This document shows positions 9,615 through 29,391 of a stretch of 64,000 nt of DNA, piece after piece. The DNA comes from Verrucomicrobia bacterium UBA3841 (lineage in GTDB: Bacteria; Verrucomicrobiota; Kiritimatiellia; RFP12; UBA1067): the NCBI GenBank assembly GCA_002392765.1, contig DGHT01000022.1, positions 1,324 through 65,323 on the forward strand, written 5' to 3'. Position 1 is the stretch's first letter; every line of letters starts with the position of its first letter. The notes beneath the pieces are model-generated. The model saw only the letters and a program-made list of their open reading frames with translations, made no database searches and was not told where the DNA came from. The translations under genes were made by a program, and so were the position numbers.

Positions 9615-9748
9615 TTTCCTTTCTTTGCGGGTTTGGTTGATTTGACTGTTCTGTATTTGCATTCAAGCTGCGTGACGCCTGCGAAGAGTAGGCACTTGCC
9701 CTTCTTGTGCCACTTGCAGGATGTGTTTGCGCACTTGACCTCCTGCAT
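9611..9748 (-). CDS. Small Cys-rich protein (45 aa)
   Basis: MQEVKCANTSCKWHKKGKCLLFAGVTQLECKY... with four Cys. Translationally coupled between the MuB-like stop and the gam start. Below the track's size cutoff. Confidence 0.4.
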   Translation of the reverse strand: MQEVKCANTSCKWHKKGKCLLFAGVTQLECKYRTVKSTKPAKKGK

Positions 9749-9749
9749 G

Positions 9750-10817: not shown

Positions 10818-10847
10818 TGTATTTTCCTCCTGTGTGTTGTGTTTGGT

Positions 10848-13055
10848 TTAGTCAATAAAATCGTCATGCGGTATCAGAGGCTCCTCGCCTTCGTCGAGGT
10901 CGCCTATGTCAGCGCCCTCTTCGCCCGGCACGTCGTCCGGATCGAGCGTGACGTCCGCGCCTTCGACTCCCGCAAGCTCGCCGCGCTGCCGCTCTTCGAG
11001 TTCCCGGCGCTCCACCGGATCCTCGACCCCGAGCGCGGCGAGATTCGCCGCCGCGGCCTCGTTGCGCTCCTTGAGACGCGCCCTGACAACCGGCTCGAGC
11101 TTCGCCTTGGCGTCCGCGAGCGCCGCGCTGCGAAGACCCAGCTGCTCCTGGAGCGCCGCAACGTCCGCGTCCGCATCGGCGCGAACCGCCGGAATCGACT
11201 TTGCAACCCCGAGGAAACGCCCTTGCAGGTCGCATACATACGCCTTGCCGCAGTCCATCGGATTGACCCAGACATGCAGCTTCATCCCCCGCGGAAGCGG
11301 CTTGCCGTCGATGATCGCGGCAACGACATACCTCTCGCCCGTCTCGGCATCGCGCACCGTCACCGTCAGTTTGTCGCCGACCGTCCCAATATGCGCCAGC
11401 TCCTTTCCCAGGATCATCGGAGCGAACGCCGGCGAGACGCTCTCGAGCTTCGCGGCCTTCGTCGCGCTCGACCACGCCTCCGCCGGACTCATCCGGCGCT
11501 CGCGGTACATCGCCGCGCCGGACGCGACAAGCGCCCTGACCTGCGCGGCCCTCTCGGGCGGGAGCGCCGCCATGCGCGGCATCGCCGTCCAGTGCGGCAT
11601 ACCGGCAACCTGCATTTCCCCGACCATAAACCCGCACTCCTCCCAGCCCTCCAGCTGGTGCTCCGTCCGCTCGTCCATGCGCCTGTGCGCATCATCGACC
11701 GCGACCGCGAACGCGCGCCACGTCGGGAAGTTGAACCGCAACCCGCTCCCCGGCGTCGCCGGAAGCGCTTCCGCCAGCCTCATAAGCGCCGCGTCCTCGC
11801 GCACCATGCCGATCGTCTCCTCGGGCTGGACGCCCCGCCCGCCGCCGATGTTGCCGAAGATTGCCGCGTCGGTGTAGTTTTTGAGCGTCGCATGCATCTG
11901 CTCTATCATCCCCTTGTGCCGCGGGTTGCCGTGGTGCTGCACGTCCGGCAGTCCCTTCGCAAGCGGCTCGGTTATAATCGAGCCCGCCCGGAATACAACC
12001 GGCTTGCGCCCCGCGCCCTCGCGTACCGCGTTGATCGCGGCGAGCGCCGCGCCGAACGTGTCGTCCGCCGACGCCGTACCGTGCTCGCCCTTGATTACGC
12101 AACCACCCTCCGGCACGCCGACTACACAAAGCAGATAATGGTATAGATACCTCACCCACGCGCTTTTCAGCGTCTTCCTGGTGCCGTCCTCCGCCTCGAC
12201 AACCGGCTTGGCAAGATGGCATATCACATGCCCCGTGAGACGGTCCATCGCCGCGAACTCGACGACCCGCTGCGGCTTCGCGTTCCCGCCGAAGATCACC
12301 ATGTGCTCGTACCACATGTCGTCCACCTCGACGACCTGGCACGGCAGGAGCCCGACGCGCGTCATCCTCACCGTCGGCAGGAAGTCTATCTTCGCCTGCC
12401 CAAGCCCGATCCGCGCCGCCTCTAGCGAGCATTTGTCGGGCTTTAGCGACATCAGGTTCCGGAGCGACCATCCGGGCGGAGGGTTGCGCTCCGACCAAGG
12501 ACACGGCTCGCCCTCAGCCGGACGGTAGCCGTGCACGTTGAAATAGATGTCCTGCCATTTGCCGAACCCGGGTATGGTGTCGCCGGTGGCGAGATCCCTC
12601 ATCAGTTTCACCCAGGCCGGCTTTACCTTCCGCTTGCACGAGAGGACCCGCGCGTGCCAGTCGGCCATGAAGGCATCGTTGAACGCGAGACCGTGGCCGG
12701 ATACACGGTTGGCGATTCTCATGTCGACGGCGCCCCAGACATCGACGACAACGGTCATCCTGCCGTTGCGGGATTCCTCCCTGAATACCCTGGCGCATTT
12801 CCGGTAGAGGCTCTTGAGCGATATGCCGCCGATCCCCAGCCGGTCGAGCCGCGCGGCGATCTCGTCGGCGCACCGCGCCTTGTCGGCGGAGAGCCGGAAT
12901 ACGTTGAGCGCGTCGACGAGCGACAGAGTGCGCCGCACTTCGTCACCGGGCAAGAGTTCGAACAGCCGGTCGATGTCGGCCTTCGGAATCAACGGCTTGC
13001 CTCTGCCGGAGTCTTCCGGCAGCGGCGCGGCCGGGGCTGCAATCAGTGTTCCCAT
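10848..13055 (-). CDS. MuA-like DDE transposase
   Basis: 735 aa with an rve-like core (..VVEVDDMWYEH.., ..SADD.., ..HKGMIEQMHATLKNY). Start MGTLIAAP at 13055 after AAGGAGA. Confidence 0.8.
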   Translation of the reverse strand: MGTLIAAPAAPLPEDSGRGKPLIPKADIDRLFELLPGDEVRRTLSLVDALNVFRLSADKARCADEIAARLDRLGIGGISLKSLYRKCARVFREESRNGRMTVVVDVWGAVDMRIANRVSGHGLAFNDAFMADWHARVLSCKRKVKPAWVKLMRDLATGDTIPGFGKWQDIYFNVHGYRPAEGEPCPWSERNPPPGWSLRNLMSLKPDKCSLEAARIGLGQAKIDFLPTVRMTRVGLLPCQVVEVDDMWYEHMVIFGGNAKPQRVVEFAAMDRLTGHVICHLAKPVVEAEDGTRKTLKSAWVRYLYHYLLCVVGVPEGGCVIKGEHGTASADDTFGAALAAINAVREGAGRKPVVFRAGSIITEPLAKGLPDVQHHGNPRHKGMIEQMHATLKNYTDAAIFGNIGGGRGVQPEETIGMVREDAALMRLAEALPATPGSGLRFNFPTWRAFAVAVDDAHRRMDERTEHQLEGWEECGFMVGEMQVAGMPHWTAMPRMAALPPERAAQVRALVASGAAMYRERRMSPAEAWSSATKAAKLESVSPAFAPMILGKELAHIGTVGDKLTVTVRDAETGERYVVAAIIDGKPLPRGMKLHVWVNPMDCGKAYVCDLQGRFLGVAKSIPAVRADADADVAALQEQLGLRSAALADAKAKLEPVVRARLKERNEAAAANLAALGVEDPVERRELEERQRGELAGVEGADVTLDPDDVPGEEGADIGDLDEGEEPLIPHDDFID

Positions 13056-13086
13056 TTCTGTTTCTCCTTGTCTTGTGGTTTGTGGA

Positions 13087-13812
13087 TTAGACCTTTTCAA
13101 GTCGTTGCAGCGCCGCTTCGGCGTCGCTGCAAAGCGACTTCAGGATGCTGTGCGCCTCGGCGAGCTCGACGAGGTCGAGATGGTCGATGACGTGGTGGTC
13201 GCGCTGCGCATCCTGGAGCGGACGCAGATGGTCGCGGACCGTCGCCCATGCAGACGACGCCGTCTCGGCCACCTTGTCGAGCTCTACCATCTCCGCTTTG
13301 CCCGATGCCTCGCCCTTCGGCTTGCGGCCCTGGCCGCGACCAGGGCCGCCCCAGCTGTTGCCGTCTTCGTTCTTAATGCGCTTGACGATGCCGAGGTCGA
13401 TCATCGCCCTCGTCGCGCTCTTGTCTTCCATCCCAACCGTCGCGGCGGAGAGTTCAGTGACTGTCGGCTTTTTCGAGATAGGTATCTCCGCCGCAGTCCT
13501 CATCACACCGACCGTCCTCGTGAAAAACTGTATATACCGGTCGGCGGTGAAGCGCGATATTTGCAGATTTTTGTCGCACCATTCGACCCAGCCTCCGTAG
13601 CCGATGGCCTGCTTCTGCTTGGCGAGTTCCCACCCGGCAAGTATCAGATGGGCAAGCGCCTGGCGGCCGTGGTGCTGCGCCATGCCGACGTGGTAGTTGA
13701 TGCGCTCGCCTGGCGTGTTGTAGTCCGGCTCATTGATGTCGCCCAGCGGCGGCAGTCCTTCCGGCGCGATCGGAGCGACGGGAGCAGGGAGATACTTCTT
13801 TGACTTTTTCAT
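13087..13812 (-). CDS. DUF3102-family protein
   Basis: ..LILAGWELAKQKQAIGYGGWVEWCDKNLQISRFTADRYIQFF.. matches the DUF3102 core pattern (G..L...K......G.W..W......S..TA..YM). Confidence 0.6.
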   Translation of the reverse strand: MKKSKKYLPAPVAPIAPEGLPPLGDINEPDYNTPGERINYHVGMAQHHGRQALAHLILAGWELAKQKQAIGYGGWVEWCDKNLQISRFTADRYIQFFTRTVGVMRTAAEIPISKKPTVTELSAATVGMEDKSATRAMIDLGIVKRIKNEDGNSWGGPGRGQGRKPKGEASGKAEMVELDKVAETASSAWATVRDHLRPLQDAQRDHHVIDHLDLVELAEAHSILKSLCSDAEAALQRLEKV

Positions 13813-14043
13813 TTAGATGGAGCCTTCGTCTGGGGTGTATTCGTTGGATTCGATGTAATCGCGCGCGGCGTCGCGTGAAATGATGTACTTGCCGTTGAGG
13901 ACGTTGGCGGCAAGCTTGCCGGTCTTGATGTCGGCAAGAATAGGAGCCGTCGTCGAAAGCCCGTACGCGGCGGCGATGTCCGCAGGCGACAGCAGGGGCT
14001 TTCGCGGCAGCATCTGGATGATAGTCTGTGTCGTGGCGTTCAT
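13813..14043 (-). CDS. Excisionase-family/HTH_17-like DNA-binding protein
   Basis: LLSPADIAAAYGLSTTAPILADIKTGKLAANVLNGKYIISRDAARDYI. Confidence 0.55.
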   Translation of the reverse strand: MNATTQTIIQMLPRKPLLSPADIAAAYGLSTTAPILADIKTGKLAANVLNGKYIISRDAARDYIESNEYTPDEGSI

Positions 14044-14046
14044 TAG

Positions 14047-14376
14047 TTACTTCCATTTATTTGCATAGAAACACTGTCCGCGCGTTTCAATTCGCGCGCG
14101 GCCGCAAATGCGGATATTTGTTTTCAGCTTTATCAGCTCGTATTTCTGGTCGCGTTCCGCGAGGTGCTGCAGCAGCTTCTCGCGGAACGTCCGCCGTTCC
14201 CATTTAAGGTGTTTTAGATGCGGATCGGCACGGTCGTACTTGCGCACCGTCGGCAATGCATGGTGGTCGCTGAGGTATTTCGCGCGCTTGCGGCAGGCGT
14301 CGGAGCAGTACCGCGTGTTTTTGTGTACTGCCCGAAACGCCTGTCCGCAGATGCCGCATGTTTTTTCCACAATCAT
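14047..14376 (-). CDS. Zinc-ribbon protein
   Basis: CGICGQAF...YCSDACRKRAKY Cys4 pattern. Confidence 0.5.
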   Translation of the reverse strand: MIVEKTCGICGQAFRAVHKNTRYCSDACRKRAKYLSDHHALPTVRKYDRADPHLKHLKWERRTFREKLLQHLAERDQKYELIKLKTNIRICGRARIETRGQCFYANKWK

Positions 14377-14699
14377 TGCGCGGAATCCCCCTTACGGTCT
14401 TCCCTCGCCTCCGCTCTCCGCCTGCGCCTGCGCTCGAGGGTGTGGACGTTCTCCTGGATGTAGGCGTTCGATGCCGCCGCCGCGCACTTTAGTACGCGGT
14501 GGAAGCTAGAGCCCGTCAGGCAGAATTTCTCCTCGCCGTCGATTCTGAATACAGCGACGATGTCGTCCTTGAACTTTTTGACGTGCAGGTTGTATACCTG
14601 CCCCTGGTTGTTTACGGCGAAGGCAGTCCAAAAGCCCTCGCCCTTGATGTACTTTGCCGGGAGTGTCCCGATCTTCAACTGGTTGTTGTCTTCTTGCAT
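14373..14699 (-). CDS. Hypothetical early protein
   Basis: Coupled start/stop within the operon. Non-shadow amino-acid composition in the N-terminal roughly 85 aa. Confidence 0.45.
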   Translation of the reverse strand: MQEDNNQLKIGTLPAKYIKGEGFWTAFAVNNQGQVYNLHVKKFKDDIVAVFRIDGEEKFCLTGSSFHRVLKCAAAASNAYIQENVHTLERRRRRRAEAREDRKGDSAQ

Positions 14700-14727
14700 T
14701 GCGTTTTCCTCCTGTTTGGGTGTAATT

Positions 14728-14800
14728 CAAGGAGATGGGTATCCCCCGGCCTCAGGCCATCCGCGAAGCGGATGCCCTAGCAGGGGTGCGTCCCGCTCCG
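14728..14800. repeat. Palindromic element X (three stem-loops incl. GCGAAGC mini-hairpin) with CAAGGAGATG left boundary
   Basis: caaggagatg-ggtatccccc-ggcc tca ggcc-atccgc gaa gcggat-gccct agc agggg. About 55 bp nearly identical to 22994-23050. Confidence 0.85.
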
Positions 14801-14801
14801 T

Positions 14802-14975
14802 TCAATCCCTCGTATCGACCGTATCCGCGAGCGACGGCTTGCGGACCTCGCCCTCGTCGTCCTCGTCGTCGCCGTCGAGTACCGCCATGACCGTCGCCGC
14901 GACTATCGTGCCGACGACCCCGACCGCAACCCCGAACAGGAATACGGCCCATGCCATCATTGTATCTGCTATCAT
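14802..14975 (-). CDS. Possible 57-aa membrane protein
   Basis: MIADTMMAWAVFLFGVAVGVVGTIVAATVMAVLDGDDEDDEGE.. has one TM helix and an acidic tail. Preceded by the GGAGGGGAGGAATAAAAAATG junction. Below the track cutoff. Confidence 0.4.
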   Translation of the reverse strand: MIADTMMAWAVFLFGVAVGVVGTIVAATVMAVLDGDDEDDEGEVRKPSLADTVDTRD

Positions 14976-14978
14976 TTT

Positions 14979-15257
14979 TTATTCCTCCCCTCCTTGAACT
15001 TCAAGCCCAGTTCGCGCCTCCTTCTTGTCGAGGCGCTCGAAGGTGACCGTCTCGCGGCCGCCGCCGAAGCGGTCGCATGGCTCGAGCTTTACGACCACGA
15101 ACTCGGCATACTCCTTGCTGTGGTAGCAGCAGTCGCCGGTGATCCGGAGCATGACGTGCTGGCCGACCTGGAACTGCCCAGCCTTGAGATCGGACACCTC
15201 GCGGGGTTTCGCGTGGGTCTGTCCGTTTCGATTGAGTGTGACTTTCTTCATCTTCAT
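14979..15257 (-). CDS. Hypothetical early protein
   Basis: CAAGGAGATACCAATG start context. 92 aa. Confidence 0.5.
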   Translation of the reverse strand: MKMKKVTLNRNGQTHAKPREVSDLKAGQFQVGQHVMLRITGDCCYHSKEYAEFVVVKLEPCDRFGGGRETVTFERLDKKEARTGLEVQGGEE

Positions 15258-15291
15258 TGGTATCTCCTTGTTTGTGGGTTGTGGTTTTTAG

Positions 15292-15360
15292 ACAGGATTT
15301 ACAGGATTGACAGGATTTGTCGCAGAGAGGTTCAGGGGCGGAGTATCTTGCTCCGCTCCT
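15292..15360. repeat. 9-mer array ACAGGATTK x3 plus hairpin
   Basis: acaggattt acaggattg acaggattt (15292-15318), then gcggag-tatcttg-ctccgc (about 15338-15356), related to SL1 of the cloverleaf family. Confidence 0.8.
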
Positions 15361-15580
15361 GTTGTGACTGAGCCTCGAGAAAGTTGAGCACATTACGGCT
15401 GCGGACGGCATCCAGCTTTTTAAAATGCGCCCCGCCGGTGCCTGCATAGAAGTCGGCGCAATAGCACCAGCACGGATCGCTGAATGTAGAGTGGAACGCG
15501 CACTTGTCGCAATCCTTCCCCTTAAGCACTTCGTAGAGCCAGGGGCCGATTGCCACGATTATCTGTCCAACTTCTTGCAT
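15332..15580 (-). CDS. Cys-rich hypothetical early protein
   Basis: ..CDKCAFHSTFSDPCWCYCADF... ATG at 15580 overlaps the upstream stop (TGATG). Confidence 0.45.
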   Translation of the reverse strand: MQEVGQIIVAIGPWLYEVLKGKDCDKCAFHSTFSDPCWCYCADFYAGTGGAHFKKLDAVRSRNVLNFLEAQSQQERSKILRP

Positions 15581-15909
15581 CACTTCCCCTCCTTGAACTC
15601 TTTGCCGTCGACGGTTCCAAGGGATATAGTAAGGATCATGTAGCGCTTTCCATGCTCGGCTGGGCCGTCCTCGTCGGTGGAGGAGAAGAAACTAAGGCCA
15701 AGCAGTCCGCCGGCATACGTGAAGCTCGTGATTATCTGGACGCGCTCGACCGGGTCCTTGTACAACGCGCTCACGTATGCGGTATCCTTGGAGCAAGATG
15801 CCTCGGCATTCTTGATCTCTTCCGCAGCGACAAAATCGCACCTCTCCGCAAACCGCGCAGCTGCCCGCCGCACTTGATTGAATAGACCGCGAATTTTCCT
15901 GGCGTGCAT
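15580..15909 (-). CDS. Hypothetical early protein (109 aa)
   Basis: Starts MHARKIRG at 15909, overlapping the Ner-like stop. The track ORF 15580..16116 fuses two genes. Confidence 0.5.
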   Translation of the reverse strand: MHARKIRGLFNQVRRAAARFAERCDFVAAEEIKNAEASCSKDTAYVSALYKDPVERVQIITSFTYAGGLLGLSFFSSTDEDGPAEHGKRYMILTISLGTVDGKEFKEGK

Positions 15910-16079
15910 CACTTCCCCTCCTTGAACTTGAGCCCGAGTTCGCGCATCTTTGCGCGGAGCGGGCGCGAAATCCTCATACCGCGCGACGCATAGCACACAT
16001 GCGCCGGCGAATATCCCGTCAAGCGCGCGATTTCGCGTACGCCGGCGGCCCGCAATTTCGGTTTTCCTTTTGTTGCCAT
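15909..16079 (-). CDS. Ner/Cro-like small HTH regulator (56 aa)
   Basis: MATKGKPKLRAAGVREIARLTGYSPAHVCYASRGMRISRPLRAKMRELGLKFKEGK (hand-translated). AAAGGAGGG RBS. First gene of the early operon, divergent from the repressor. Confidence 0.55.
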   Translation of the reverse strand: MATKGKPKLRAAGVREIARLTGYSPAHVCYASRGMRISRPLRAKMRELGLKFKEGK

Positions 16080-16129
16080 CTGCCCTCCTTTTTGATATAT
16101 TATTTTTCTGTTCCAACGGAACGAGGGAT

Positions 16130-16159
16130 ATTATACCAAATTGGAATATTGGTTGTCAA
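16130..16159 (-). promoter_or_regulatory. Early promoter (sigma70-like TTGACA-N18-TATAAT)
   Basis: Minus strand: TTGACA (16159-16154), 18-nt spacer, TATAAT (16135-16130), about 45 nt upstream of the Ner-like ATG. One operator repeat lies in the spacer. Confidence 0.6.
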
Positions 16160-16176
16160 TACCAGATTGGAATATT
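16140..16176. promoter_or_regulatory. Putative operators: ATTGGAATATT x2
   Basis: Identical 11-mers at 16140-16150 and 16166-16176 between the divergent Ner-like and repressor genes. Confidence 0.55.
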
Positions 16177-16189
16177 TTTTGGAGGCCGA

Positions 16190-16540
16190 ATGATCGATAA
16201 AGTCAGACGGAATCGCTTTGCGGCGAATTTGAAAGCCTTGCGCACTGGCGCAGGGCTCAATCAGCACGCCCTCGCTAAATTGCTTGGGATAGCACAGCCG
16301 GCAGTTGCCAGATATGAGTCAGGTGTGCGGGAACCTGACCTTGATGATTTGATGTCTATCGCGGATAAACTCAACACGACGCCGAACGACCTTCTAGGAT
16401 TTGCGCCGCAACGATCGACACCATCTGCGCATTCTTGTGCGACCAACATCCACACAGGTAATAACTCACCCGTTGCAATCGGCAATAACATTACACAAAT
16501 GTTAGGACCGTTAAAGACAAAAAGAAGTAAGGATTCATGA
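16190..16540 (+). CDS. XRE-family HTH repressor (Mu c / CI analogue)
   Basis: FAANLKALRTGAGLNQHALAKLLGIAQPAVARYESGVREPDLDDLMSIADKLNTTPNDLLGF. GGAGG RBS. No S24 peptidase domain. Confidence 0.8.
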   Translation: MIDKVRRNRFAANLKALRTGAGLNQHALAKLLGIAQPAVARYESGVREPDLDDLMSIADKLNTTPNDLLGFAPQRSTPSAHSCATNIHTGNNSPVAIGNNITQMLGPLKTKRSKDS

Positions 16541-16544
16541 TGCA

Positions 16545-17243
16545 ATGAATAACCCCGAACGCCTTTTAGAAATATTGTTTAAGTATAAACTTCCGCAACC
16601 TGCGAGTGCCGACGCAGAAGGCATAATACAGGAAACCATTGAATACGCGAAGAAGCGAAATCCCGGCGCAGCCGTTCTCGTTTGTTCTAGAACACTTGCC
16701 GAAGCTATGTCTCGATATACCTTGGCACAAGGTAATGCCGAATTTTCAATTCCTGAGGCAAGTCAACTGCTGGATGCAATTATAAAATATTATTTTTCCA
16801 CCATTTATAAAGCACCCAAGCAAGCGCTTGAAGCGGCGTCAACTGAAGAATGTGTTCAGACACTACTTCGTTTAGAAAATAGTGCGGCACAATACAAGGA
16901 AGACACCGACGCTATTGGACTTAGGATATTTCCCGCAAGAGAATTACGTCTATTTATGCACATTGGAAATAACGAACAAAAAGTTGAGGATTGCAAGCGC
17001 AAATGGATTCAGTGCGGAGGTGGCTTATATGGTGGTAAAATGATAGCATTAACAATGGATTCAATATGGGAGAAAATGTCTATATTCCAACTACCATACC
17101 CACCATTTGATTTTCGGTGCTGTTTTGGAACACTAGGTGTGCCAAGAAAAGACTGTATAAGTATTGGATTGATAAAGGAGCCGAAACACCTAATCTTGAA
17201 GCGCAAGTTGCCAGCAATTAGGCTCTCGATTAAAGCCAAATAG
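16545..17243 (+). CDS. Repressor-linked low-GC accessory protein with MuF-core-like C-terminal domain
   Basis: Begins 4 nt after the repressor stop. Visibly AT-richer than its surroundings. aa 129-211 align with aa 126-205 of the MuF-like protein at 31622..32758 (..W...GG..YGGKMIA...D..WE..S.F..P.PPFD....G.L.V.RK..I..GLI). Confidence 0.6.
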   Translation: MNNPERLLEILFKYKLPQPASADAEGIIQETIEYAKKRNPGAAVLVCSRTLAEAMSRYTLAQGNAEFSIPEASQLLDAIIKYYFSTIYKAPKQALEAASTEECVQTLLRLENSAAQYKEDTDAIGLRIFPARELRLFMHIGNNEQKVEDCKRKWIQCGGGLYGGKMIALTMDSIWEKMSIFQLPYPPFDFRCCFGTLGVPRKDCISIGLIKEPKHLILKRKLPAIRLSIKAK

Positions 17244-17247
17244 ACAT

Positions 17248-17284
17248 CCCCCCTTGCACCCCGCTTGCAGGGGGTTTGTTTTAT
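17248..17284 (+). terminator. Intrinsic terminator after the repressor operon
   Basis: ccccct..gca / tgc..aggggg stem followed by tttgttttat. Confidence 0.6.
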
Positions 17285-17322
17285 GGGCGCACGGTCGGTT
17301 GGTCGTGCGCTTTTTTTGTACA

Positions 17323-17403
17323 TTCAAGTTGATTAAGTTGTTGCACGCGTGCAACAACCTCTTCAAGTTGATTTGACCCTGTTTTGCTCATTTGACCCTG
17401 TTT
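17323..17403. promoter_or_regulatory. Dense repeat cluster between lysogeny and late modules
   Basis: ttcaagttgatt x2 (17323, 17362) flanking the 22-bp perfect palindrome gttgttgcacgcgtgcaacaac (17337-17358). atttgaccctgttt x2 (17371, 17390). Confidence 0.5.
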
Positions 17404-17464
17404 CATTCATCTTGATTATTTAGACCATTTTGCTCATTTACCCCCTTGCACCCCCGTGCAGCGT

Positions 17465-17493
17465 TTGAAATCGGCCGTTTGCTATGTCATAAT
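17465..17493 (+). promoter_or_regulatory. Candidate late/middle promoter TTGAAA-N17-CATAAT
   Basis: TTGAAA 17465-17470 and CATAAT 17488-17493. About 160 nt upstream of the first late ORF. Confidence 0.35.
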
Positions 17494-17616
17494 ATTGGCG
17501 TCTTGACCGATCATTGGTCCTCCTGAATGTGTATGGAAAGCAAGCCGCGTCCGGCGGTAGCTCGCGGAAGGTCTCGAACCCCGCGAACCGGACACCCCGA
17601 ACGGGGGTTGAAGCGA

Positions 17617-17651
17617 ATGTAAAATGTAAAGTGTAAAATGTAAAATGTGAG
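17617..17651. repeat. Heptamer array RTGTAAA x4-5 abutting the first late start codon
   Basis: atgtaaa atgtaaa gtgtaaa atgtaaa atgtgag, then ATG at 17652. Confidence 0.9.
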
Positions 17652-18107
17652 ATGGTGGAAACAACGACTATAGACGCGCTGCTGAATGTCGCGGTCAGAT
17701 ATGAACTCTACGGCGTAGATTTCATCCGGGATTTCGACTACGCCACGCTCTGCCGCGAATACAACGGCATCGGCCCGGAATGGGCGGGCGCTCCGATCCG
17801 CGAAAAGACTACGAAGTGGTTCTCCCTCTTCGAGCCCGCGGCGCTTATCCACGACATGCGCAACTACATGTCGGATGGCCGCAAGGAGGCATTCGACGCG
17901 GCGAACCTGGAGTTCCTCGCGAACTGTCGCAAGCTTGCAAACGCCGCGTATCCCTGGTACAGCTGGCGCAGATACCGCGCGCGCTTTGTCGCGCATCTCC
18001 TGTACGATTTTGTGGACGGCCCCGGCGGATGGATGGCTTGGCGCGAATGCTGGGAGAAGAGGAAAGAAAGAATACAAGGAGATGGAGCGTCCCGCTCCGT
18101 CGTATAG
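17652..18107 (+). CDS. Hypothetical protein at the endolysin position (YNGIG...HD motif)
   Basis: First late gene. EYNGIGPEW....AALIHDMRNY. The C-terminus is read through the cloverleaf element. No lysozyme, transglycosylase or amidase motif recognised. Confidence 0.5.
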   Translation: MVETTTIDALLNVAVRYELYGVDFIRDFDYATLCREYNGIGPEWAGAPIREKTTKWFSLFEPAALIHDMRNYMSDGRKEAFDAANLEFLANCRKLANAAYPWYSWRRYRARFVAHLLYDFVDGPGGWMAWRECWEKRKERIQGDGASRSVV

Positions 18108-18133
18108 ACGCGGCGGGACGCCGCATCTCCTTG
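18075..18133. repeat. 59-bp cloverleaf palindromic element (family Z), complete copy
   Basis: caaggagatg | gagcg tcc cgctc | cgtc gtata gacg | cggcg gga cgccg | catctccttg: 10-bp terminal stem plus three abutting stem-loops. Paralog at 60444-60502. Confidence 0.9.
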
Positions 18134-18172
18134 AAATATACCGATTTGTCAACAAAAACGAAAGGATGAAAA

Positions 18173-18694
18173 ATGAAACGACTGATGATGTTCGCCGCGC
18201 TTGCGGCAGTACTGGCCGGATGCCGCGCGGTGACGGTCGAGAACTTCGGCGAGGAAATCGCGCGCGACGCCGACAATAAGCCGGTCACTCTCCCAGACGG
18301 CAGAATCCAGACTGTCAACAGGGGCTGGAAGGTCCACCACAACCAGCACTGGATGGCGACGGACGTTGACACGATGGAAGCACACATCAAGCCGGAAGAC
18401 ATTTCGTTTTCCGTCGGCAAGATTTCGACGAAGCCGTCCGAGGAACTGGCCAAGCTCGTCGACGTCTCCCTGAAGGGCGCGGCGGAACTCGCGGCGAAGA
18501 TCGGCGCGGCGATCGCAACCGGCGGCGGATCTGTCGCAGGCGAGGCGGGATATACCGCACTCAGGAACGCGATATCGAACTTCATCGGCAAGGGCGGCGA
18601 CGCGTCGAAGGCGACCGTGACGTGCGAGGGAGGCAACTGCACCATATCCGACGGCACGGTCACGGAGGTTTGCGAGAGCTGCTTCGAGAGGTGA
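18173..18694 (+). CDS. Phage lipoprotein (possible o-spanin-like or exclusion protein)
   Basis: MKRLMMFAALAAVLAGC signal peptide with lipobox LAGC. Located in the lysis-cassette position. Confidence 0.6.
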   Translation: MKRLMMFAALAAVLAGCRAVTVENFGEEIARDADNKPVTLPDGRIQTVNRGWKVHHNQHWMATDVDTMEAHIKPEDISFSVGKISTKPSEELAKLVDVSLKGAAELAAKIGAAIATGGGSVAGEAGYTALRNAISNFIGKGGDASKATVTCEGGNCTISDGTVTEVCESCFER

Positions 18695-18700
18695 TCGCAG

Positions 18701-19042
18701 ATGGACGTCGAAACGATCATCCAGGGCGGAGGTCTGATCCTCTCCGGCGCGGCGGTCGGAAAGATCGTCGACGTCGCGGTCAAGGCGTGGACGGCCCGCC
18801 ACCACAAAGGCGAGGTGTCCGTAACGCCCGATCCGCTGAACGTCCGCAAGGAAGACAAGTTCGTGACACGCGGCGAGTTCAACAAGCACGTCGAGCAGAA
18901 CGACGCCGCGCACACCGAAATCTTCCGGCGACTCAAGGAGACGGAGCAGAAGACCGAGCACCAGGACGGCAAGCTGGACGTGATCGGCAGCGACGTGAAG
19001 ACCATCAAGGACATCTTAATCGGAAAGGCACTCAAGAAATGA
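18701..19042 (+). CDS. N-terminal TM plus coiled-coil protein (i-spanin- or holin-like)
   Basis: IIQGGGLILSGAAVGKIV hydrophobic segment, then a charged coiled coil. Confidence 0.45.
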   Translation: MDVETIIQGGGLILSGAAVGKIVDVAVKAWTARHHKGEVSVTPDPLNVRKEDKFVTRGEFNKHVEQNDAAHTEIFRRLKETEQKTEHQDGKLDVIGSDVKTIKDILIGKALKK

Positions 19043-19299
19043 ACGCAAACGACCCGGCCGTGCAGCTGAGAATACGCACGGCGCTCCAGACGCTGGAGCG
19101 CATCCCCGTGGGACTCCCCGCCGACGCCCTCGTGCGCCAGGTGGATTCACTCGTCGGCGACCCGACCAGCCCCGTCGAGGGCGAGGAGCTGCTGACGTTC
19201 CTCGTGCGCAAGCGCTGGGTCTACACGCTCACGGACGCGATCGGGCGCACGCTCTACCGCCTGTCGTCCGCCGGCAGAGAGGCTCTCGCGGAGGTCTGA
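19039..19299 (+). CDS. Hypothetical protein (86 aa)
   Basis: ATG 19039 overlaps the upstream stop (ATGA). In-frame portion of track ORF 18622..19299. Confidence 0.45.
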   Translation: MNANDPAVQLRIRTALQTLERIPVGLPADALVRQVDSLVGDPTSPVEGEELLTFLVRKRWVYTLTDAIGRTLYRLSSAGREALAEV

Positions 19300-19301
19300 C
19301 G

Positions 19302-19901
19302 ATGGCGAAGGCCGCGACCGAGAAGAAGCTGCGCAGCGACGCATGGGAGGCCCCGCTTTCGGCGGAGCTGCGCGAGAAGTTCTACTTCGCGATCGAGCCG
19401 CTGGACTTTCCGGAGGGCTCGGCGCTCGCCGCGAAGGAGCCGTACTCGCTGCGCGCGACGTCGATACAGGCGTACTACCGCTGCCAGGCCCGCGCCCGCG
19501 CGGCGATCGAGAAGGCGAAGACGCGCGCGAGCGCGCTGGCCAAGCTCGAGACCGCGCAGGCCGTCGCGCCGCTCGTGAGGTCGGCGGCGGTCAACGCCGT
19601 CGGCGACGGCGTGATGGCGGACACGCTCGCGTCGCTCGCGGCGACCGCCGTGATGCAGGGCGCGGACAAGGACACGATCACGGCGCTCGGTTCGCTCGCC
19701 TGCGGCTTCCGCGCCAACGCGCTCAAGGCCGCCGCGCAGCAGACCAAGGACGAGCAGCTGAAGCTCGCCCGGGAAAAGTTCGAGGCGGCGGAGAAGAGGC
19801 TGGAGCGCGTCGCCGAGATCGCCGACGCCGCGCGCGGCGGCAAGGTGGACCCCGCGAAGGTCGCCGACGAAATCGACAGAATCCTCGGAAGAAAGAAATA
19901 G
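19302..19901 (+). CDS. Putative small terminase subunit (Mu gp27-position)
   Basis: Immediately upstream of the large terminase. Helical and Ala-rich. Call is by position only. Confidence 0.35.
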   Translation: MAKAATEKKLRSDAWEAPLSAELREKFYFAIEPLDFPEGSALAAKEPYSLRATSIQAYYRCQARARAAIEKAKTRASALAKLETAQAVAPLVRSAAVNAVGDGVMADTLASLAATAVMQGADKDTITALGSLACGFRANALKAAAQQTKDEQLKLAREKFEAAEKRLERVAEIADAARGGKVDPAKVADEIDRILGRKK

Positions 19902-19903
19902 AA

Positions 19904-21349
19904 GTGAACGAAGCCGACACATCATATTTCCTGCCATACCAGGAAGCGTGGATCAACGACGACTCGCCGCTGAAGGTGGCAGAGAAGTCGCGCCGCGTCG
20001 GCTTCACCTACGCGTCGAGCTACCGCATGTTCCAGAAGTGCATGAGGCGCGGCAAGGGCTTCACGCAGTGGGTGAGCTCGCGCGACCGGCTGACGGCGCA
20101 GGAGCTCATACGCGACTACATCGCCATGTGGTGCAAGCTCGCCAACGTCGCCGCCCAGGGACTGACCGGCGAAGACATCCAGGTGATCGACACGGAGAAG
20201 GACATAACCGCCTTTGTCTGCACGTTCCCGAACGGCGCGCGCATCGTCTCGCTCTCCTCGACTCCGGAGGCGTTCGCCGGCAAGGGCGGCGACGTGTTCC
20301 TGGACGAAGTGGATCTGCACCGCGACTCGGGCGCGCTCATCGACATGGCGTATCCCTGCATCATGTGGGGCAACCAGCTTGAGATGGTCAGCGCCTACCG
20401 CGTGGACGGGTCGAAGGACACGCCCTTCGCGAAGCTCGTCGCCGAGGCGAAGAAGGACAACCCGCAGCATGCGTCGCTGCACCGCGTGACGATTCACGAC
20501 GCGGTGGCGCAGGGGCTCGTCGAGAAGATCAACGCGAAGTCGGGCCGCAGCCAGACGCGCGAGGAGTTCCTGCAGCAGACCCGCGCCGGATGCCGCACGC
20601 TCGCCGCATGGGAGTCGCAGTTCGAGTGCAAGGTGCAGGACGCGGGCGGGAAGCTGCTGCCGACGAAGATCCTCGCTCCGTGCGAAATGCCGGCGGAGGA
20701 GATCGCGGCGATCGAGCGCCGCTATCCGGACGCGCCGCGCTTCGCGGGCTTCGACATCGCCCGTCGCCGCCACGCGAGCGCCTGGAGCGAATGGCTGCAG
20801 ATCGGCGTCACATTCTTCCTCGTCAGGCGCGAGACCTTCCACGACATGGAGTTCGAGGCGCAGCGCAAGTTCCTCGAAGCTCAGATGCAGGGCCGCACTT
20901 CCAAGCGCATCACGCGGCTCGCCATGGACGCGACGGGCCTCGGCATGGAGACTGCGGAGTGGGCCGCCAAGAAATGGCCGGGCCGCGTCGACCAGGTGAA
21001 CCTGGAGTCGCACCGCCGCCACGAGATATGCATGATGTTCCAGGACTGGTTCAACACCGCGAACGCGAGGATCCCGGCGGACGCGGTACTTCGCGAGGAC
21101 TACCAGACGCCCGTCCTCAAGACCGCCGCGAACGGCAACGTGCGCGTGTCCGTCCCGGAGTTCGAGAACGACGAGGGCGAGACGTCTCACTGCGACGAGT
21201 TCATGGCGGGGGTGCTGGCGCGCTCCGCCGCCGACGCCGGCGGCGCGGAGCCCGCCATGCAGGCGACGGCGGAGATCGATGACGACGATTTGGGGAACGG
21301 GGAATGGGGAACGGGGAACGGAACCCTTACGAGAAGGAGCTTCATGTGA
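19904..21349 (+). CDS. Terminase large subunit (Mu gp28-like)
   Basis: GTG start at 19904. FLPYQEAWINDDSPLKVAEKSRRVGFTYASS.. N-terminal ATPase pattern. Followed by the portal gene. The C-terminus (LGNGEWGTGNGT) is encoded by a GGGGAAY array. Confidence 0.8.
   Translation: MNEADTSYFLPYQEAWINDDSPLKVAEKSRRVGFTYASSYRMFQKCMRRGKGFTQWVSSRDRLTAQELIRDYIAMWCKLANVAAQGLTGEDIQVIDTEKDITAFVCTFPNGARIVSLSSTPEAFAGKGGDVFLDEVDLHRDSGALIDMAYPCIMWGNQLEMVSAYRVDGSKDTPFAKLVAEAKKDNPQHASLHRVTIHDAVAQGLVEKINAKSGRSQTREEFLQQTRAGCRTLAAWESQFECKVQDAGGKLLPTKILAPCEMPAEEIAAIERRYPDAPRFAGFDIARRRHASAWSEWLQIGVTFFLVRRETFHDMEFEAQRKFLEAQMQGRTSKRITRLAMDATGLGMETAEWAAKKWPGRVDQVNLESHRRHEICMMFQDWFNTANARIPADAVLREDYQTPVLKTAANGNVRVSVPEFENDEGETSHCDEFMAGVLARSAADAGGAEPAMQATAEIDDDDLGNGEWGTGNGTLTRRSFM
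21292..21321. repeat. GGGGAAY heptamer array in the terminase 3' end
   Basis: ggggaacggggaatggggaacggggaacgg, identical 30-mer to 22942-22971. Same family as umuC 1287-1314. Confidence 0.95.
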
Positions 21350-23283
21350 TGAACATCCTAAGCGGCATCAGGCGGTTTTTCTTCCAGAAGGCGTCGAACG
21401 ACTTCGACGCGAACGAGGCGTTCCGCCGCAACCAGCTCAGGTACAACGCGCTGCGCGCGCTCGACCCGGACGTCCTGGTGCGGCACCTCGAGGCGTTCCA
21501 GCGCGGCGACATCTGCGGGCTCGAGCGCGTCATCGACGAGTTCGAGCAGCGCGAGGACAAGATGCGCATCGGCTCGTTCAAGATGGCGGCCGCCGTCTCG
21601 TCCAAGCCGTGGAAGGTGCAGATACGCCAGGGCGAGGAGGAGAACCCGCGCGCCAAGCTGCACCAGGAGCACTTGACGAAATTCTGGAACCGCGTCGAGG
21701 CGACGGACGCCTTCTGCCGCAATAGGAAAGGCGGGCTCAGGCTCCTAGTCAAGCAGATGATGAGCGCGCAGTCGCGCGTCTACTCCGTCCACGACATCTG
21801 CTGGAAGGTCAACGGCGACGGCACATTGAACGCGACGTTCACGCACGTTCCGGCGTGGTGCTTCGAGAACCGCACCGGACGGCTCAGGTACATCAGGAAC
21901 GACTGCGACACCGTCGGCGCGGAGATGCCCGACGGCGAATGGCTCGTCACCGTGGGCGAAGGCGTCGGCGTCGCGGCGGCGGTGATCGCCATGGCCAAGC
22001 GCCTCTCCTGGAACGACTGGCTGCTCTTCTCGGAGAAGTGCGGCATGCCGGTCATCCTGGGCAACACCAACGCGCAGCGCGATACGCCCGCATGGGCGGC
22101 GATGAGCCGCGCCATCCGCGCGATCGCGCCGAAGACCGGGCTTCTCGCCGACACCGGCACGACCCTGAACGCCGTCTCGATGGGCGCGGGCGGACAGAAC
22201 ACATACCGCGAGCTCGTCGACACGGTGGACCGTGCGATATCCGCGCTCTACCGCGGCGGGGACCTCGCCACGCAGTCGAGCGGACCGGACGCCGCGGGCG
22301 TCAACGCCCAGGCGGGCGAGTCGGAGCTGATGGACGACGACGGCTGCAAGATGGTCGCGGAGACGCTGCGCGACCAGGTTGAGAAGTTCGTGATCCGGTT
22401 CGAGCTCGGCGACTTCGAGCCGCTCGCGGAGATCGTCATCAACCCGCCAGCCGACACCGACGACGTCGACCGCGAGATGAAGATCGACACCCACCTCTCC
22501 GGACTCGGCGTGAAGCTGTCGAAGAAGGACGCGCTCGCCCGGTACGGCCGGACGGAGGCGGAGGACGAAAACGACGCCCTTGCCTTGTCGTCGGCACCTG
22601 TGACAGATTCCGATTCGCAGAAACTCACCGCTCAGGACATCGCATCGCTTATCTATCCGCTCAGAGCTGGTGGATATAAAATCTCCCAGCCGGTAGACGA
22701 GAGAGCGACAGGTCTCAAACTGGAGGAAATCACCCCTGGAGATGGAAGTGACGGCAGCAAAAACCAGCTTGCGAACGAGAAGACAGGCAAGACCCCCTTG
22801 CAAAACGACGAGAACCGCTTGCAAAACGCGCCGCGCGTTTCGGACGGACAAGGAGACCCCTCGGGCGAGGACGCGCTTGTAGAGGCTCTAAGCGGCCTGT
22901 TTGAGAAGTCGCTTGCCGAGGCAGCGGCTGACGCCGCCGCCGGGGAACGGGGAATGGGGAACGGGGAACGGGAACCGGTAGGGGCCGACCACCGGTATCC
23001 CCCAGCCGAAGGCTGTCCGCGAAGCGGATGCCCTAGCAGGGGTGCGGCCCAGGAAGAGCTTGCGAACTCCACCGACGCCCAGGGCAACGAGCACGCCGAA
23101 GCCGGATCCAATAACGGTGGCCAGTTCGTCAGCAAGGGTGAGGGCGGCGAAGCCCACACGCCTGAACAAAAGAAACGCATCGACGGCACGATGGCCGTGC
23201 AAACGGTTGTTCCGGACACGAAGCGCAAGACGCTCTTCATAACTTCGACAAGGATTGAAAAGCGAAAGGACGGGCACTTATAG
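21349..23283 (+). CDS. Portal protein (Mu gp29/DUF935-like) with extended C-terminus
   Basis: ATG overlaps the terminase stop and GAGAAGGAG lies upstream. MNILSGIRRFF..FRRNQLRYNALRALDPDVL..FQRGD. About 130 extra C-terminal residues contain repeat-element-encoded sequence. Confidence 0.8.
   Translation: MNILSGIRRFFFQKASNDFDANEAFRRNQLRYNALRALDPDVLVRHLEAFQRGDICGLERVIDEFEQREDKMRIGSFKMAAAVSSKPWKVQIRQGEEENPRAKLHQEHLTKFWNRVEATDAFCRNRKGGLRLLVKQMMSAQSRVYSVHDICWKVNGDGTLNATFTHVPAWCFENRTGRLRYIRNDCDTVGAEMPDGEWLVTVGEGVGVAAAVIAMAKRLSWNDWLLFSEKCGMPVILGNTNAQRDTPAWAAMSRAIRAIAPKTGLLADTGTTLNAVSMGAGGQNTYRELVDTVDRAISALYRGGDLATQSSGPDAAGVNAQAGESELMDDDGCKMVAETLRDQVEKFVIRFELGDFEPLAEIVINPPADTDDVDREMKIDTHLSGLGVKLSKKDALARYGRTEAEDENDALALSSAPVTDSDSQKLTAQDIASLIYPLRAGGYKISQPVDERATGLKLEEITPGDGSDGSKNQLANEKTGKTPLQNDENRLQNAPRVSDGQGDPSGEDALVEALSGLFEKSLAEAAADAAAGERGMGNGEREPVGADHRYPPAEGCPRSGCPSRGAAQEELANSTDAQGNEHAEAGSNNGGQFVSKGEGGEAHTPEQKKRIDGTMAVQTVVPDTKRKTLFITSTRIEKRKDGHL
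22942..23050. repeat. GGGGAAY array plus element X copy, in-frame inside the portal gene
   Basis: 30-mer array 22942-22971, then ggtatccccc-cagcc gaa ggctg-tccgc gaa gcgga-ccct agc aggg (22994-23050). Translated as GERGMGNGERE...YPPAEGCPRSGCPSRGAAQ. Confidence 0.9.
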
Positions 23284-23358
23284 GGCCGAAGCCCAAGTGG
23301 ATACCCGTCCTAACGACGCCACAAATTATACCACAACCACTTTCGGAAAGTCAAGGAG

Positions 23359-24405
23359 ATGAGAATGAAGAGCCTCAACATATATGCTCTCGCGAACGAA
23401 CTGAACCTCGGAGACCCGAAGTCCGGCACAATACGCGTGCCCTTCGGCCGGTGGGACTTCGGCGCGAAGAAGCTCGACGACGGCCGCACCGTGTTCTTCG
23501 TCCAGGAGCTGACGAAGGACGGCGCGGAGCGGATGGCCGCGAAGATCAACGCGGGCGTCGCGGACGGCGAGAAAGGCGTCCCGGTGTACTGGGGGCACCC
23601 CGACGTTCCGGAGCTCGCGCACAAGTACCCCGACAAGCGCGCCAAGGGCTGGATCAAGTCCGCGGCGGTCGATGCGGACGCGCTCGTCCTGGGCGTCGAA
23701 TGGCTGGAGGAGAACGCGACGGACGGCTTCGGCTGGTTCTCGCCCTACTGGGGCGGCCCGGCGACGGACCTCGGAGAGGGGCGCTACCTGAAGCACCTCG
23801 ACTCGCTCACGTCGGTCGCCTTGATCAACATCCCCAACATACAGGAATTTCGCCTTGCAAACGAGTTGCATGGCGGCTTAAACAACAATGAAACCGGCGC
23901 TATCGCCGGGGAAGGAGAAAAGAAAATGGATCGAGTGAAGCTCATCCAGGCCCTTGGGCTCCCGGAGACCGCGACGGACGAAGACATCTTCGCGGCCATC
24001 GAGAAGAACAAGGCAGCTGCGGCCGACGCCGCGACGAAACAGGCAGCCGCCGAAGCCGAAAAGGCGCAGGCAGAAACGGAGAAGGACGAGGCGAAGGCGG
24101 AGCTCGCGAACGAGCGCGCCGCGCGCTGCGGGCTTCTCCTGGACCAGGCGATCGCCGAGGGGCGCATCAGCGTCGCCGGCCGCCCCGCGTGGGAGAAGCG
24201 CCTAAAGGACGACTTCGCCGCCGGTTCGGTCGCCCTCGCGAACGAAAAGCCGCTCAAGACCGCGAGCGCGGTCACGCAGACGCCCGCCGCCCAGGCGAAG
24301 GTCGATCTCGTCGCGCTCGCGAACGAGCGGATGCAGAAGAACCCCTCCCTGACCTATCCCGCGGCGTTCGCGGCGGTCATGAAGGAACACCCCGAAGTCA
24401 AGTAA
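23359..24405 (+). CDS. Mu I-like prohead protease/scaffold
   Basis: ..IRVPFGRWDFG...FVQELTKDGAERMAAKINAG.. N-terminal domain, then an Ala/Glu-rich coiled-coil C-terminus (scaffold-like). Lies between portal and capsid. Confidence 0.7.
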   Translation: MRMKSLNIYALANELNLGDPKSGTIRVPFGRWDFGAKKLDDGRTVFFVQELTKDGAERMAAKINAGVADGEKGVPVYWGHPDVPELAHKYPDKRAKGWIKSAAVDADALVLGVEWLEENATDGFGWFSPYWGGPATDLGEGRYLKHLDSLTSVALINIPNIQEFRLANELHGGLNNNETGAIAGEGEKKMDRVKLIQALGLPETATDEDIFAAIEKNKAAAADAATKQAAAEAEKAQAETEKDEAKAELANERAARCGLLLDQAIAEGRISVAGRPAWEKRLKDDFAAGSVALANEKPLKTASAVTQTPAAQAKVDLVALANERMQKNPSLTYPAAFAAVMKEHPEVK

Positions 24406-24422
24406 ACGAAAGGTAAAAGCAA

Positions 24423-24794
24423 ATGAATGCAATCCACCAGAACGGCAAGGCCACGTTCACGGCCGGTGCCGCAATCGCCAAGGGCGAGTTCGTGAAGTTC
24501 TCGTCCGGAAAGGTCGTCAAGGCCTCCGCCGCGACCGACGTCTGCATCGGCGTCGCGCTCGATTCGGCGGCAGCCGACGGCGACATCATCCCCGTGCAGC
24601 TCCTCTCGAGCGGCGACACCGCCCTCGTCAAGGCGGGCGGTGCGGTCGCGCAGGGCGGCACGGTCTCGTGCCTCGGCACGACCGTCTCCACGGCCGGCGC
24701 GCTCCAGTACGGCATCGCGCTCGAGGCGGCCACCGCCTCCGGCCAGATCATCAACTGCATCGTCGGACTCCCGGCGGTCATCAAGATCAGCTAA
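24423..24794 (+). CDS. DUF2190-like capsid decoration/cement protein
   Basis: FTAGAAIAKGEFVKFSSGKVVKASAATDVCIGVALDSAAADGDIIPVQL. Directly upstream of the capsid gene. Confidence 0.65.
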   Translation: MNAIHQNGKATFTAGAAIAKGEFVKFSSGKVVKASAATDVCIGVALDSAAADGDIIPVQLLSSGDTALVKAGGAVAQGGTVSCLGTTVSTAGALQYGIALEAATASGQIINCIVGLPAVIKIS

Positions 24795-24819
24795 GTTGAA
24801 ACCCAAGAAAGGCAATCAA

Positions 24820-25800: not shown

Positions 25801-25802
25801 GA

Positions 25803-25895
25803 AGTTGAAAGGTTGAAAAGTTGAATAGTTGAGAAGTTGAACAGAGGCAAGAACCTTTCAACCTTTTAACCTTTCAACTTTTCAACTTTTCAACC
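25803..25895. repeat. Long hairpin whose arms are tandem 8-mers (GTTGAAAN x5 / NTTTCAAC x5)
   Basis: agttgaaaggttgaaaagttgaatagttgagaagttgaac - agaggcaagaa - cctttcaaccttttaacctttcaacttttcaacttttcaacc, immediately after the capsid stop. Confidence 0.9.
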
Positions 25896-25899
25896 TGGG

Positions 25900-28727: not shown

Positions 28728-28733
28728 GGGCGC

Positions 28734-29388: not shown

Positions 29389-29391
29389 ACC

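Follow-up and report, generated by a model that had tools for sequence, protein, structure and literature searches.

The window analysed here is a stretch of 64,000 nucleotides of Verrucomicrobia bacterium UBA3841 (contig DGHT01000022.1), which carries a Mu-like transposable prophage and, as the subject of this work, two copies of a 59-bp palindromic element, one inside the prophage and one in host DNA between two convergent genes (Table 1). A first-pass annotation of this DNA had described the element as a cloverleaf with 10-bp terminal arms and three directly abutting hairpins, and both copies were confirmed with this architecture at the positions listed in the table. The order in both 59-mers is CAAGGAGATG, a 5-bp hairpin with a TCC loop, CGTC-N5-GACG, a 5-bp hairpin with a GGA loop and CATCTCCTTG; the two outer hairpins are referred to as SL1 and SL3, and the middle stem-loop, CGTC-N5-GACG, as SL2. 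The pattern CAAGGAGATG-N20-50-CATCTCCTTG has two sites in the window, against 0.00 expected from 100 dinucleotide shuffles.

The supposed cloverleaf is an inverted pair of 27-nt repeats and not a new class of structured element. It is very probably a tag-to-tag doublet of two units of the repetitive extragenic palindromic (REP) type, belonging to a family of Kiritimatiellae-like genomes that is associated with a REP-associated tyrosine transposase (RAYT). Covariation of the unit hairpins, the organisation of the units in related loci and the units that surround a transposase gene in related contigs are the evidence for this proposal.

The 27-nt unit and its family

In each 27-nt unit a conserved 10-nt flank (CAAGGAGRYG, the arm) is followed by a 5-bp stem closed by a TCY loop and then by a CGYC tag. 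With a model of this unit, 177 units were found across 34 loci (the retrieved related loci and contigs are labelled L003, L028, L061 and so on). The family is multi-copy, so the refuting condition set in the first-pass annotation, a lack of further copies, does not apply. Some units stand singly, others form inverted doublets with a constant 5-nt spacer or arrays in which the orientation alternates. Forty-one adjacent (+,-) pairs are separated by exactly 5 nt and correspond to the 59-mers, 48 adjacent (-,+) pairs are separated by linkers of 24, 35 or 16 nt, and neighbours of the same orientation are rare. The 5-bp stem is fully paired in 37 of the 42 distinct unit variants, and the hairpin is followed by CGTC, CGCC or CGTT in 39 of them, the remaining three having GGTC or CATC. 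At least seven perfectly paired versions of the stem exist (CGGCG/CGCCG, CACCG/CGGTG, CGGCA/TGCCG, CGGCT/AGCCG, GAGCT/AGCTC, GAGCG/CGCTC and GAGCA/TGCTC), some of which were missing from the seed alignment. Conservation of the 10-nt arm and of the TCY loop exceeds the needs of pairing.

Half-units also stand alone. Solo left halves, made up of arm, hairpin and CGTC, lie at 33294 and 39165 in the window and occur as CATGGAGACG-CGGCT-TCC-AGCCG-CGTC in several loci, and solo right halves (GACG, hairpin and arm) are the same unit on the other strand. The two solo halves in the window had been taken for truncated copies of the 59-mer; nhmmer identifies both as complete 27-nt half-units, not broken 59-mers. 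Copies are intergenic throughout or overlap the last codons of a gene only. About 70 kb of this genome hold 6-7 units, and no further unit was found in the next 6 kb of the scaffold beyond the window.

A scan of 185,579 species genomes with a pattern fixing only the two arms returned nine palindromes, one of which is a true relative; it belongs to a Kiritimatiellae metagenome-assembled genome (MAG; L003), where the element lies in a tandem array with a period of 83. An arm-only pattern with Y allowed at arm position 9 gave 40 loci in metagenome contigs, about 20 of them with true relatives, and nhmmer on those loci recovered additional copies that are more diverged or partial. Many copies lie within about 100 nt of a contig end, the expected position for a repeat that breaks assemblies, and the units explain the metagenome assembly breaks at these loci. 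Arrays with a period of 94 and 4-9 units (8-9 in L024) were found in L022, L024 and L032, directly upstream of a TGGTATAAT promoter and start codon, and alternating arrays in L070-L075.

Most family members lie outside phage contexts. IMG/VR gave zero matches to two patterns, and GenBank phages gave no blastn match. No Rfam family was assigned at the gathering threshold in the window and 12 loci, E-value mode on L010 returned noise only, and a tRNA/tmRNA scan with ARAGORN found no tRNA-like gene. A literature search found no paper connecting Kiritimatiell* with REP. The earlier statement that no described family has such a layout therefore applies to the sequence family, which matches no Rfam family and no paper and appears to be previously undescribed in Kiritimatiellae-like genomes, and does not apply to the kind of element, as REP, REPIN and BIME organisation (see below for these terms) is known.

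Table 1. Coordinates of the repeat units and related features in the window
Feature	Position	Strand	Description
Putative REP doublet, copy 1	18075..18133		inside Mu-like prophage
Copy 1 (+) unit	18075-18101	+	GAGCG/CGCTC hairpin; then 5-nt spacer GTATA
Copy 1 (-) unit	18107-18133	-	CGGCG/CGCCG hairpin
Putative REP doublet, copy 2	60444..60502		host DNA, between convergent genes 59431-60048 and 60578-62308
Copy 2 (+) unit	60444-60470	+	GAGCT/AGCTC
Copy 2 (-) unit	60476-60502	-	CGGCA/TGCCG
Single half-unit	33294..33320	+	CAAGGAGATG GAGCA TCT TGTTC CGTC; nhmmer E = 1.2e-4
Single half-unit	39165..39191	+	CAAGGAGATG GAGCA TCT TGCTC CGTC; nhmmer E = 1.4e-5
Probable interrupted half-unit (tentative)	14728..14802	+	arm 14728-14737; nested repeat 14738-14794; ...GCG TCC CGCTC CGTT to 14802
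Orphan hairpin CGGCA TCC TGCCG	60424..60436	+	without arm; 8 nt upstream of copy 2
Orphan hairpin GGGCG TCC CGCCC	39216..39228	+	stem/TCC-loop type as in the units; without arm
Response-regulator gene	59431-60048	+	one side of copy 2
Esterase gene	60578-62308	-	other side of copy 2
Mu-like transposable prophage, ~32.5 kb	6590..39088		contains copy 1, 33294 unit and 14728 unit
Host composite intergenic repeat, at least 140 nt	60328-60502	+	intact copy; copy 2 at right end (60328-60470 when counted through the copy 2 (+) unit)
Heptamer arrays	475-531, 1287-1329, 1712-1754, 21292-21326, 22942-22976		complementary runs 1336-1372, 1851-1901

Covariation and folding

Among the distinct units, four of the five stem pairs show double changes (CG/GC, AU/GC, GC/CG and GC/UA/AU). 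Pairing is seen in 96.7% of the cells of the unit hairpin, against 69.8% in shuffled alignments, with 0 of 500 shuffles reaching the observed value, and it drops to 31-55% when the partners are slid. The differences that the first-pass annotation had read as paired, namely GAGCG/CGCTC versus GAGCT/AGCTC in SL1 of the two copies (GAGCA/TGCTC at 39175) and CGGCG/CGCCG versus CGGCA/TGCCG in SL3, are compensatory in the wider sample too, in which substitutions keep the stems rather than break them. Unit hairpins are under selection or otherwise maintained.

The remainder of the cloverleaf behaves differently. When the 21 distinct full-length elements are placed on it, 94.6% of the cells pair and four pairs are changed on both sides, three of them in SL1 and one in SL3, whereas the terminal 10-bp helix and SL2 have zero double changes. 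A C.A mismatch in the terminal stem (columns 9-51) is present in 13 of the 21 distinct doublets. In the 59-mer, the terminal stem and SL2 exist because the conserved arm and the CGTC tag stand in inverted orientation; inverted flanks yield both automatically, so that no selection for a four-way junction is needed. Covariation as a sign of selection on structure accordingly stands for the unit hairpins and falls for the terminal stem and SL2, and the four-way junction is not borne out as the conserved structure, as half-units occur solo and in alternating arrays and only the unit hairpins covary.

Both copies fold strongly relative to shuffled sequence (z = -4.3 to -9.6). At minimum free energy, copy 1 folds not as the cloverleaf but as one long imperfect hairpin with SL1 paired to SL3; the cloverleaf has minimum free energy for copy 2 only, and there only under DNA parameters. 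Folding of doublets with DNA parameters always gives two unit hairpins and an arm-arm helix for the common heterodimers, with SL2 in some only. The two units of the doublet carry different stems and form a heterodimer; with different stems, single-stranded DNA tends to form two local hairpins joined by paired flanks rather than one long hairpin. The asymmetry between G.U and C.A is balanced, columns 8-52 and 25-35 favouring the + strand and columns 9-51 and 26-34 the - strand. As a separate candidate for the conserved structure, the long single hairpin was rejected, with zero covariation, 80% pairing and many broken pairs across the family.

Transposase genes, related phages and interpretation

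All-versus-all blastp of crude open reading frame (ORF) calls, which had missed the RAYT locus, gave no recurrent neighbour gene; the transposase was found by a six-frame scan of the loci for an HUH...YxxNP signature. The ORF L028:1903-2529(-) encodes a protein of 208 aa with HVHVLF and YISRNP motifs and an N-terminal extension containing LPHW. Pfam Y1_Tnp scores 34.3 bits on this protein (gathering threshold 23), and its best NCBIfam model is REP_Tyr_transpos (E = 1.4e-19), ahead of IS200 transposase. A profile built from the protein and 28 homologues has as its best PDB match 4er8, TnpArep, the E. coli RAYT (E = 9e-8), ahead of IS200/IS605 TnpA. JGI gives the name 'REP element-mobilizing transposase RayT' to many homologues, which come from Akkermansiaceae, Verrucomicrobiales, Haloferula and Kiritimatiellae.

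Inverted units bracket the L028 gene, tags facing it and arms pointing away; the (+) unit ends 4 nt from the stop codon, and the (-) unit lies 26 nt upstream of the start. The arrangement is that of the 59-mer, a gene taking the place of the 5-nt spacer. Homologues with 68-83% identity were retrieved in eleven contigs, and in all of them family units lie close to the gene, mostly in alternating arrays. The inverted bracket was also read in the contigs of the transposase protein labelled P0138 (L070-L076); in L078/L079 the units flanking the gene are both (+), and in L080 units were detected downstream of the gene only. The unit variant differs with the transposase lineage: GATG/GACG arms and the CGTC tag go with one, and GGTG arms, the CGCC tag and a doublet spacer of 13 nt with the other. 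In L070 the RAYT gene lies just past the 3' end of an esterase gene whose product is 65% identical to that encoded beside copy 2, and copy 2 holds this position in the window.

Copy 1 could be compared with related phages. Its first 33 nt form the last 11 codons and the stop codon of ORF 17652-18107, and homologues of the encoded protein end in unrelated short C-terminal tails; short C-terminal ORF extensions such as this one can be repeat-encoded, which is a warning for annotation. In phage L061, with at least 90% amino acid identity in this protein, the two genes flanking the site are about 29 nt apart and the element is absent; the more distant Mu-like phages L051-L060 have no element between these genes either. 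Insertion polymorphism, which the first-pass annotation had proposed to check between strains, shows in these phages as presence or absence at junctions that are not clean. Copy 1 was likely gained in this phage lineage; the state of the L061 junctions, together with a possible relic described below, means that the gain is not proven. A prophage doublet that is absent in a close relative provides a natural case for REPIN gain or loss.

REPINs (inverted REP doublets) and RAYTs have been described in Pseudomonas fluorescens and E. coli (PMC3116915, PMC3337134), RAYTs have been divided into groups 1-5 (PMC5581495), and a RAYT-REP structure is available (PDB 4er8). The present family resembles these systems in its short extragenic hairpin repeats, in the inverted doublet as the common unit, in the coexistence of singletons, doublets and clusters, in the Y1/HUH transposase gene between inverted units and in repeat variants that track the transposase lineage. 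It differs in the very short hairpin (5 bp with a 3-nt loop) next to a long conserved flank, in a spacer fixed at 5 nt where most described dimers have about 20-100 nt, in a transposase with the LPHW-containing extension and a score below the NCBIfam equivalog cut-off, and in its host phylum, which is Kiritimatiellota of the Planctomycetes-Verrucomicrobia-Chlamydiae (PVC) group and not Proteobacteria. REP/RAYT systems are thereby extended to a poorly studied PVC lineage with an unusually compact unit and doublet, and the short unit offers a convenient substrate for RAYT biochemistry.

Di Nocera et al. (2013, PMC3733652) distinguished two super-families of REPs, tagged GTAG and CGTC, and also described head-to-head (HH) and tail-to-tail dimers, heterodimers of different stems, clusters and REPtrons, with spacers down to 1-2 bp. 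In their CGTC-1 to CGTC-4, stems of 8-9 bp starting with A/T pairs enclose loops of 4-5 nt, a CCA tail is present, and no transposase genes are associated (PMC3733652). As in those REPs, an unpaired CGTC tag (here also CGCC and CGTT) abuts the hairpin, dimers are mostly tag-facing (HH-type) and heterodimers of different stems are common. The family described here differs in its GC-rich 5-bp stem, its 3-nt TCY loop, its 10-nt flank instead of the CCA tail, and a RAYT-like gene bracketed by units, none being linked to CGTC REPs in that study (PMC3733652). A CGTC/CGCC-tagged unit that brackets such a gene is relevant to whether CGTC-tagged REPs have a transposase, which Di Nocera et al. (2013) left open.

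Two other systems share part of this organisation. The bacterial interspersed mosaic elements (BIMEs) of E. coli, in particular BIME-2 with its alternating Y and Z REPs, likewise form tandem arrays of alternating orientation with two linker classes (here 5 nt and 16, 24 or 35 nt), which are extragenic and often follow gene 3' ends; the sequences are unrelated, and the linkers here are different and shorter. Binding of integration host factor (IHF), gyrase or Pol I is a further attribute of BIME-type arrays. The insertion sequences of the IS200/IS605 family and their miniature derivatives, the palindrome-associated transposable elements (PATEs), have a Y1 HUH transposase and subterminal hairpins at both ends, and the doublet resembles the two ends of a transposase-carrying unit from which the gene has been deleted. 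Neither a TnpB nor another accessory gene is present here, and no target tetranucleotide is defined; RAYT-type proteins also differ in being usually single-copy and far outnumbered by their repeats.

We propose, from RAYT/REPIN and IS200/IS605 biology, that a RAYT transposase binds the unit hairpins on single-stranded DNA and would cleave in the conserved flank, by which doublets could be copied or maintained. The same route may have brought a doublet into the resident Mu-like prophage. Transcribed hairpins may secondarily serve as 3'-end or stabiliser structures, as has been reported for other REPs. A bolder version holds that this is the first CGTC-type REP family with a RAYT of its own, in Kiritimatiellota, a phylum in which REPINs are undescribed; that its obligate heterodimers are selected for a two-hairpin junction fold, which would escape hairpin-processing nucleases and yet remain a transposase substrate; and that it is active enough to colonise a Mu-like prophage. 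Taken together, these claims are doubtful.

Several points weigh against assignment of the element to a RAYT-associated REP family. No RAYT gene was found in the 64-kb window by tblastn or in the next 6 kb, and it is the related contigs, not this genome, that supply the association with RAYT. The REP_Tyr_transpos score of the L028 protein, 70.5 bits, is below the equivalog cut-off of 80. The units lack the GTAG tetranucleotide that classical gamma-proteobacterial REPs carry at the foot of the hairpin; their hairpin stands between the CGYC tag and the CAAGGAGRYG flank instead, and no target-site rule or duplication could be defined for them. Template switching ('quasipalindrome correction') can also yield compensatory changes in short DNA hairpins, so that covariation speaks for maintenance of the hairpin and not for a particular molecule or protein that reads it. 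The empty site in L061 is not a clean excision, as the flanks differ and a 14-nt GCGGTCGGGACGCC is possibly a relic of the right-hand unit.

Other explanations were weighed against the RAYT-associated doublet. A structured RNA as the primary function, that is, a cis-acting cloverleaf, a terminator or mRNA stabiliser or a small RNA with selection on a four-way-junction fold, is improbable. It would account for the strong folding relative to shuffles, for copies placed between converging or co-directional genes, at gene 3' ends, and for arrays that adjoin TGGTATAAT promoters, and REPs elsewhere are reported to act at the RNA level (PMC3733652); yet the terminal stem and SL2 do not covary, the mismatch noted above disrupts most of the terminal stems, the G.U-versus-C.A asymmetry favours neither strand, half-units occur solo in both orientations, no U-tract terminator signature was found in the scan around copy 2, no Rfam family matches, and association with a transposase gene is unexpected for an RNA gene. 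Highly improbable is a function as DNA cruciforms or as binding sites for nucleoid or topology proteins that are kept for the host and not for mobility, as proposed for gyrase and IHF at E. coli BIMEs. No binding protein is identifiable from the sequence, and the conserved arm and loop, which together with the BIME-like alternating arrays and two linker classes speak for this explanation, are accounted for more directly by the RAYT association, although both functions could coexist.

That the elements are phage-related sites, either attachment (att) cores or Mu-type transposase-binding sites common to phage and host, is barely credible. A 103-nt direct repeat does take in the left part of the element and abut the prophage end, but this repeat is host DNA that was the target of phage transposition, the Mu-like prophage has its own ends at about 6590 and 39088 with a 4-5-bp target duplication, and most family members are non-phage, with none found in IMG/VR or GenBank phages. 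Chance palindromes on ribosome-binding-site-like sequence have next to no probability: the 10-mer resembles a Shine-Dalgarno sequence plus ATG, and near-matches are common in the window as true ribosome-binding sites (the match at 23352 is an ordinary ribosome-binding site and start codon), but the full pattern is found twice where none is expected and is joined by the 177 related units with covarying stems.

Prophage, host DNA and other repeats

The prophage has terminal inverted sequences, TGATTTATGCAATGAGATTTGA... and ...TCAAATCCCATTGCGTTTTACA, that match at 16 of 22 positions, its ends being approximate, and a target duplication, GCGT(T), at 6585-6589 and 39089-39093. Its genes include those for MuA-like, MuB-like, terminase, portal, head, Gam and Portal_Mu proteins, the early genes (including the MuA-/MuB-like ones) lying on the - strand and the late genes on the + strand. 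The 33294 half-unit is in prophage intergenic DNA upstream of a gene starting at 33357. The 39165 half-unit and copy 2 are host DNA, the former 77 nt beyond the right end of the prophage, and its left flank is 95% identical to that of copy 2.

The host composite intergenic repeat that ends in copy 2 has a paralogue split by the prophage (6555-6589 and 39089-39191), and the direct repeat 39089-39191/60368-60470 extends over 103 nt with 95% identity. This 103-nt repeat was rejected as an att site, since the prophage is Mu-like, its ends are mapped and its target duplication is short. At its start the composite repeat has a TGGTATTTT motif and CGCAGAG repeats, and at its end a REP unit. The stem-loop of the orphan hairpin in front of copy 2 is that of the copy 2 (-) unit, read on the opposite strand. 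The same-strain assembly (Logan contig L082) breaks inside the composite repeat, and among orthologous host loci the response-regulator-cluster contigs diverge downstream or end inside the repeat, so no empty site is readable. A promoter and terminator consensus scan around copy 2 detected neither a sigma-70 pair nor a U-tract terminator at the element. The host is Kiritimatiellae-like, with a Y-family polymerase 75% identical to one in a 'Kiritimatiellae bacterium' MAG.

The locus at 14728 had also been listed as a truncated copy of the 59-mer. The arm is present there, but it is followed by a different multi-hairpin repeat of 57 nt, and we tentatively read the locus as a half-unit interrupted by this other element; similar nested arrangements are found at L003:277-350 and in L078/L079. 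The second repeat is about 50-57 nt long and consists of TATCCCCC, a hairpin, CCGCGAAGCGG with a hairpin, and CAGGGGTG. It occurs at 14738-14794 and 22994-23050 in the window and also at L003:288-336, in L038 and in L078/L079. In the window and three other loci it sits in or against a REP half-unit, as if it were an element nesting in the REP hairpin.

Another composite repeat, about 350 bp long, is dispersed over L010:1-420 and 2250-2700 and over L017, L018, L026, L034, L036, L039 and L047. It comprises a TGGTATAAT promoter directed outward, a right half-unit, a linker of 24 nt, a complete doublet, a palindrome GTCACTTATTGCAATATGTGAC and about 150 conserved nt; it adjoins unrelated genes and is possibly a mobile module that carries a promoter. 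In L018, L010, L024 (for example about 3080-3100), L028 and L070-L079, extended -10 promoters (TGGTATAAT or TGCTATAAT) precede the ATG start codon by only 6-8 nt, an indication that leaderless mRNAs may be frequent in these Kiritimatiellae-like contigs.

Further repeats lie in the intergenic regions of the window. Tandem heptamer arrays of GGGGAAC/GGGGAAT and GAGGGAT, with their complements, occur in both host and phage DNA (Table 1). Inverted arrays of the 8-nt GTTGAAAA/TTCAACTT at 25802-25896 and 36026-36095 lie in prophage intergenic DNA, one following the major head gene and the other preceding a tail gene; they are possible regulatory or protein-binding sites. Within prophage ORF 28780-29388, a 48-nt tandem duplication (98% identical) lies in frame at 29012-29107. 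In the related Mu-like phage L051/L052, positions 866-2266 encode a group II intron-type reverse transcriptase (RVT_1 and GIIM) just upstream of the homologue of ORF 17652-18107.

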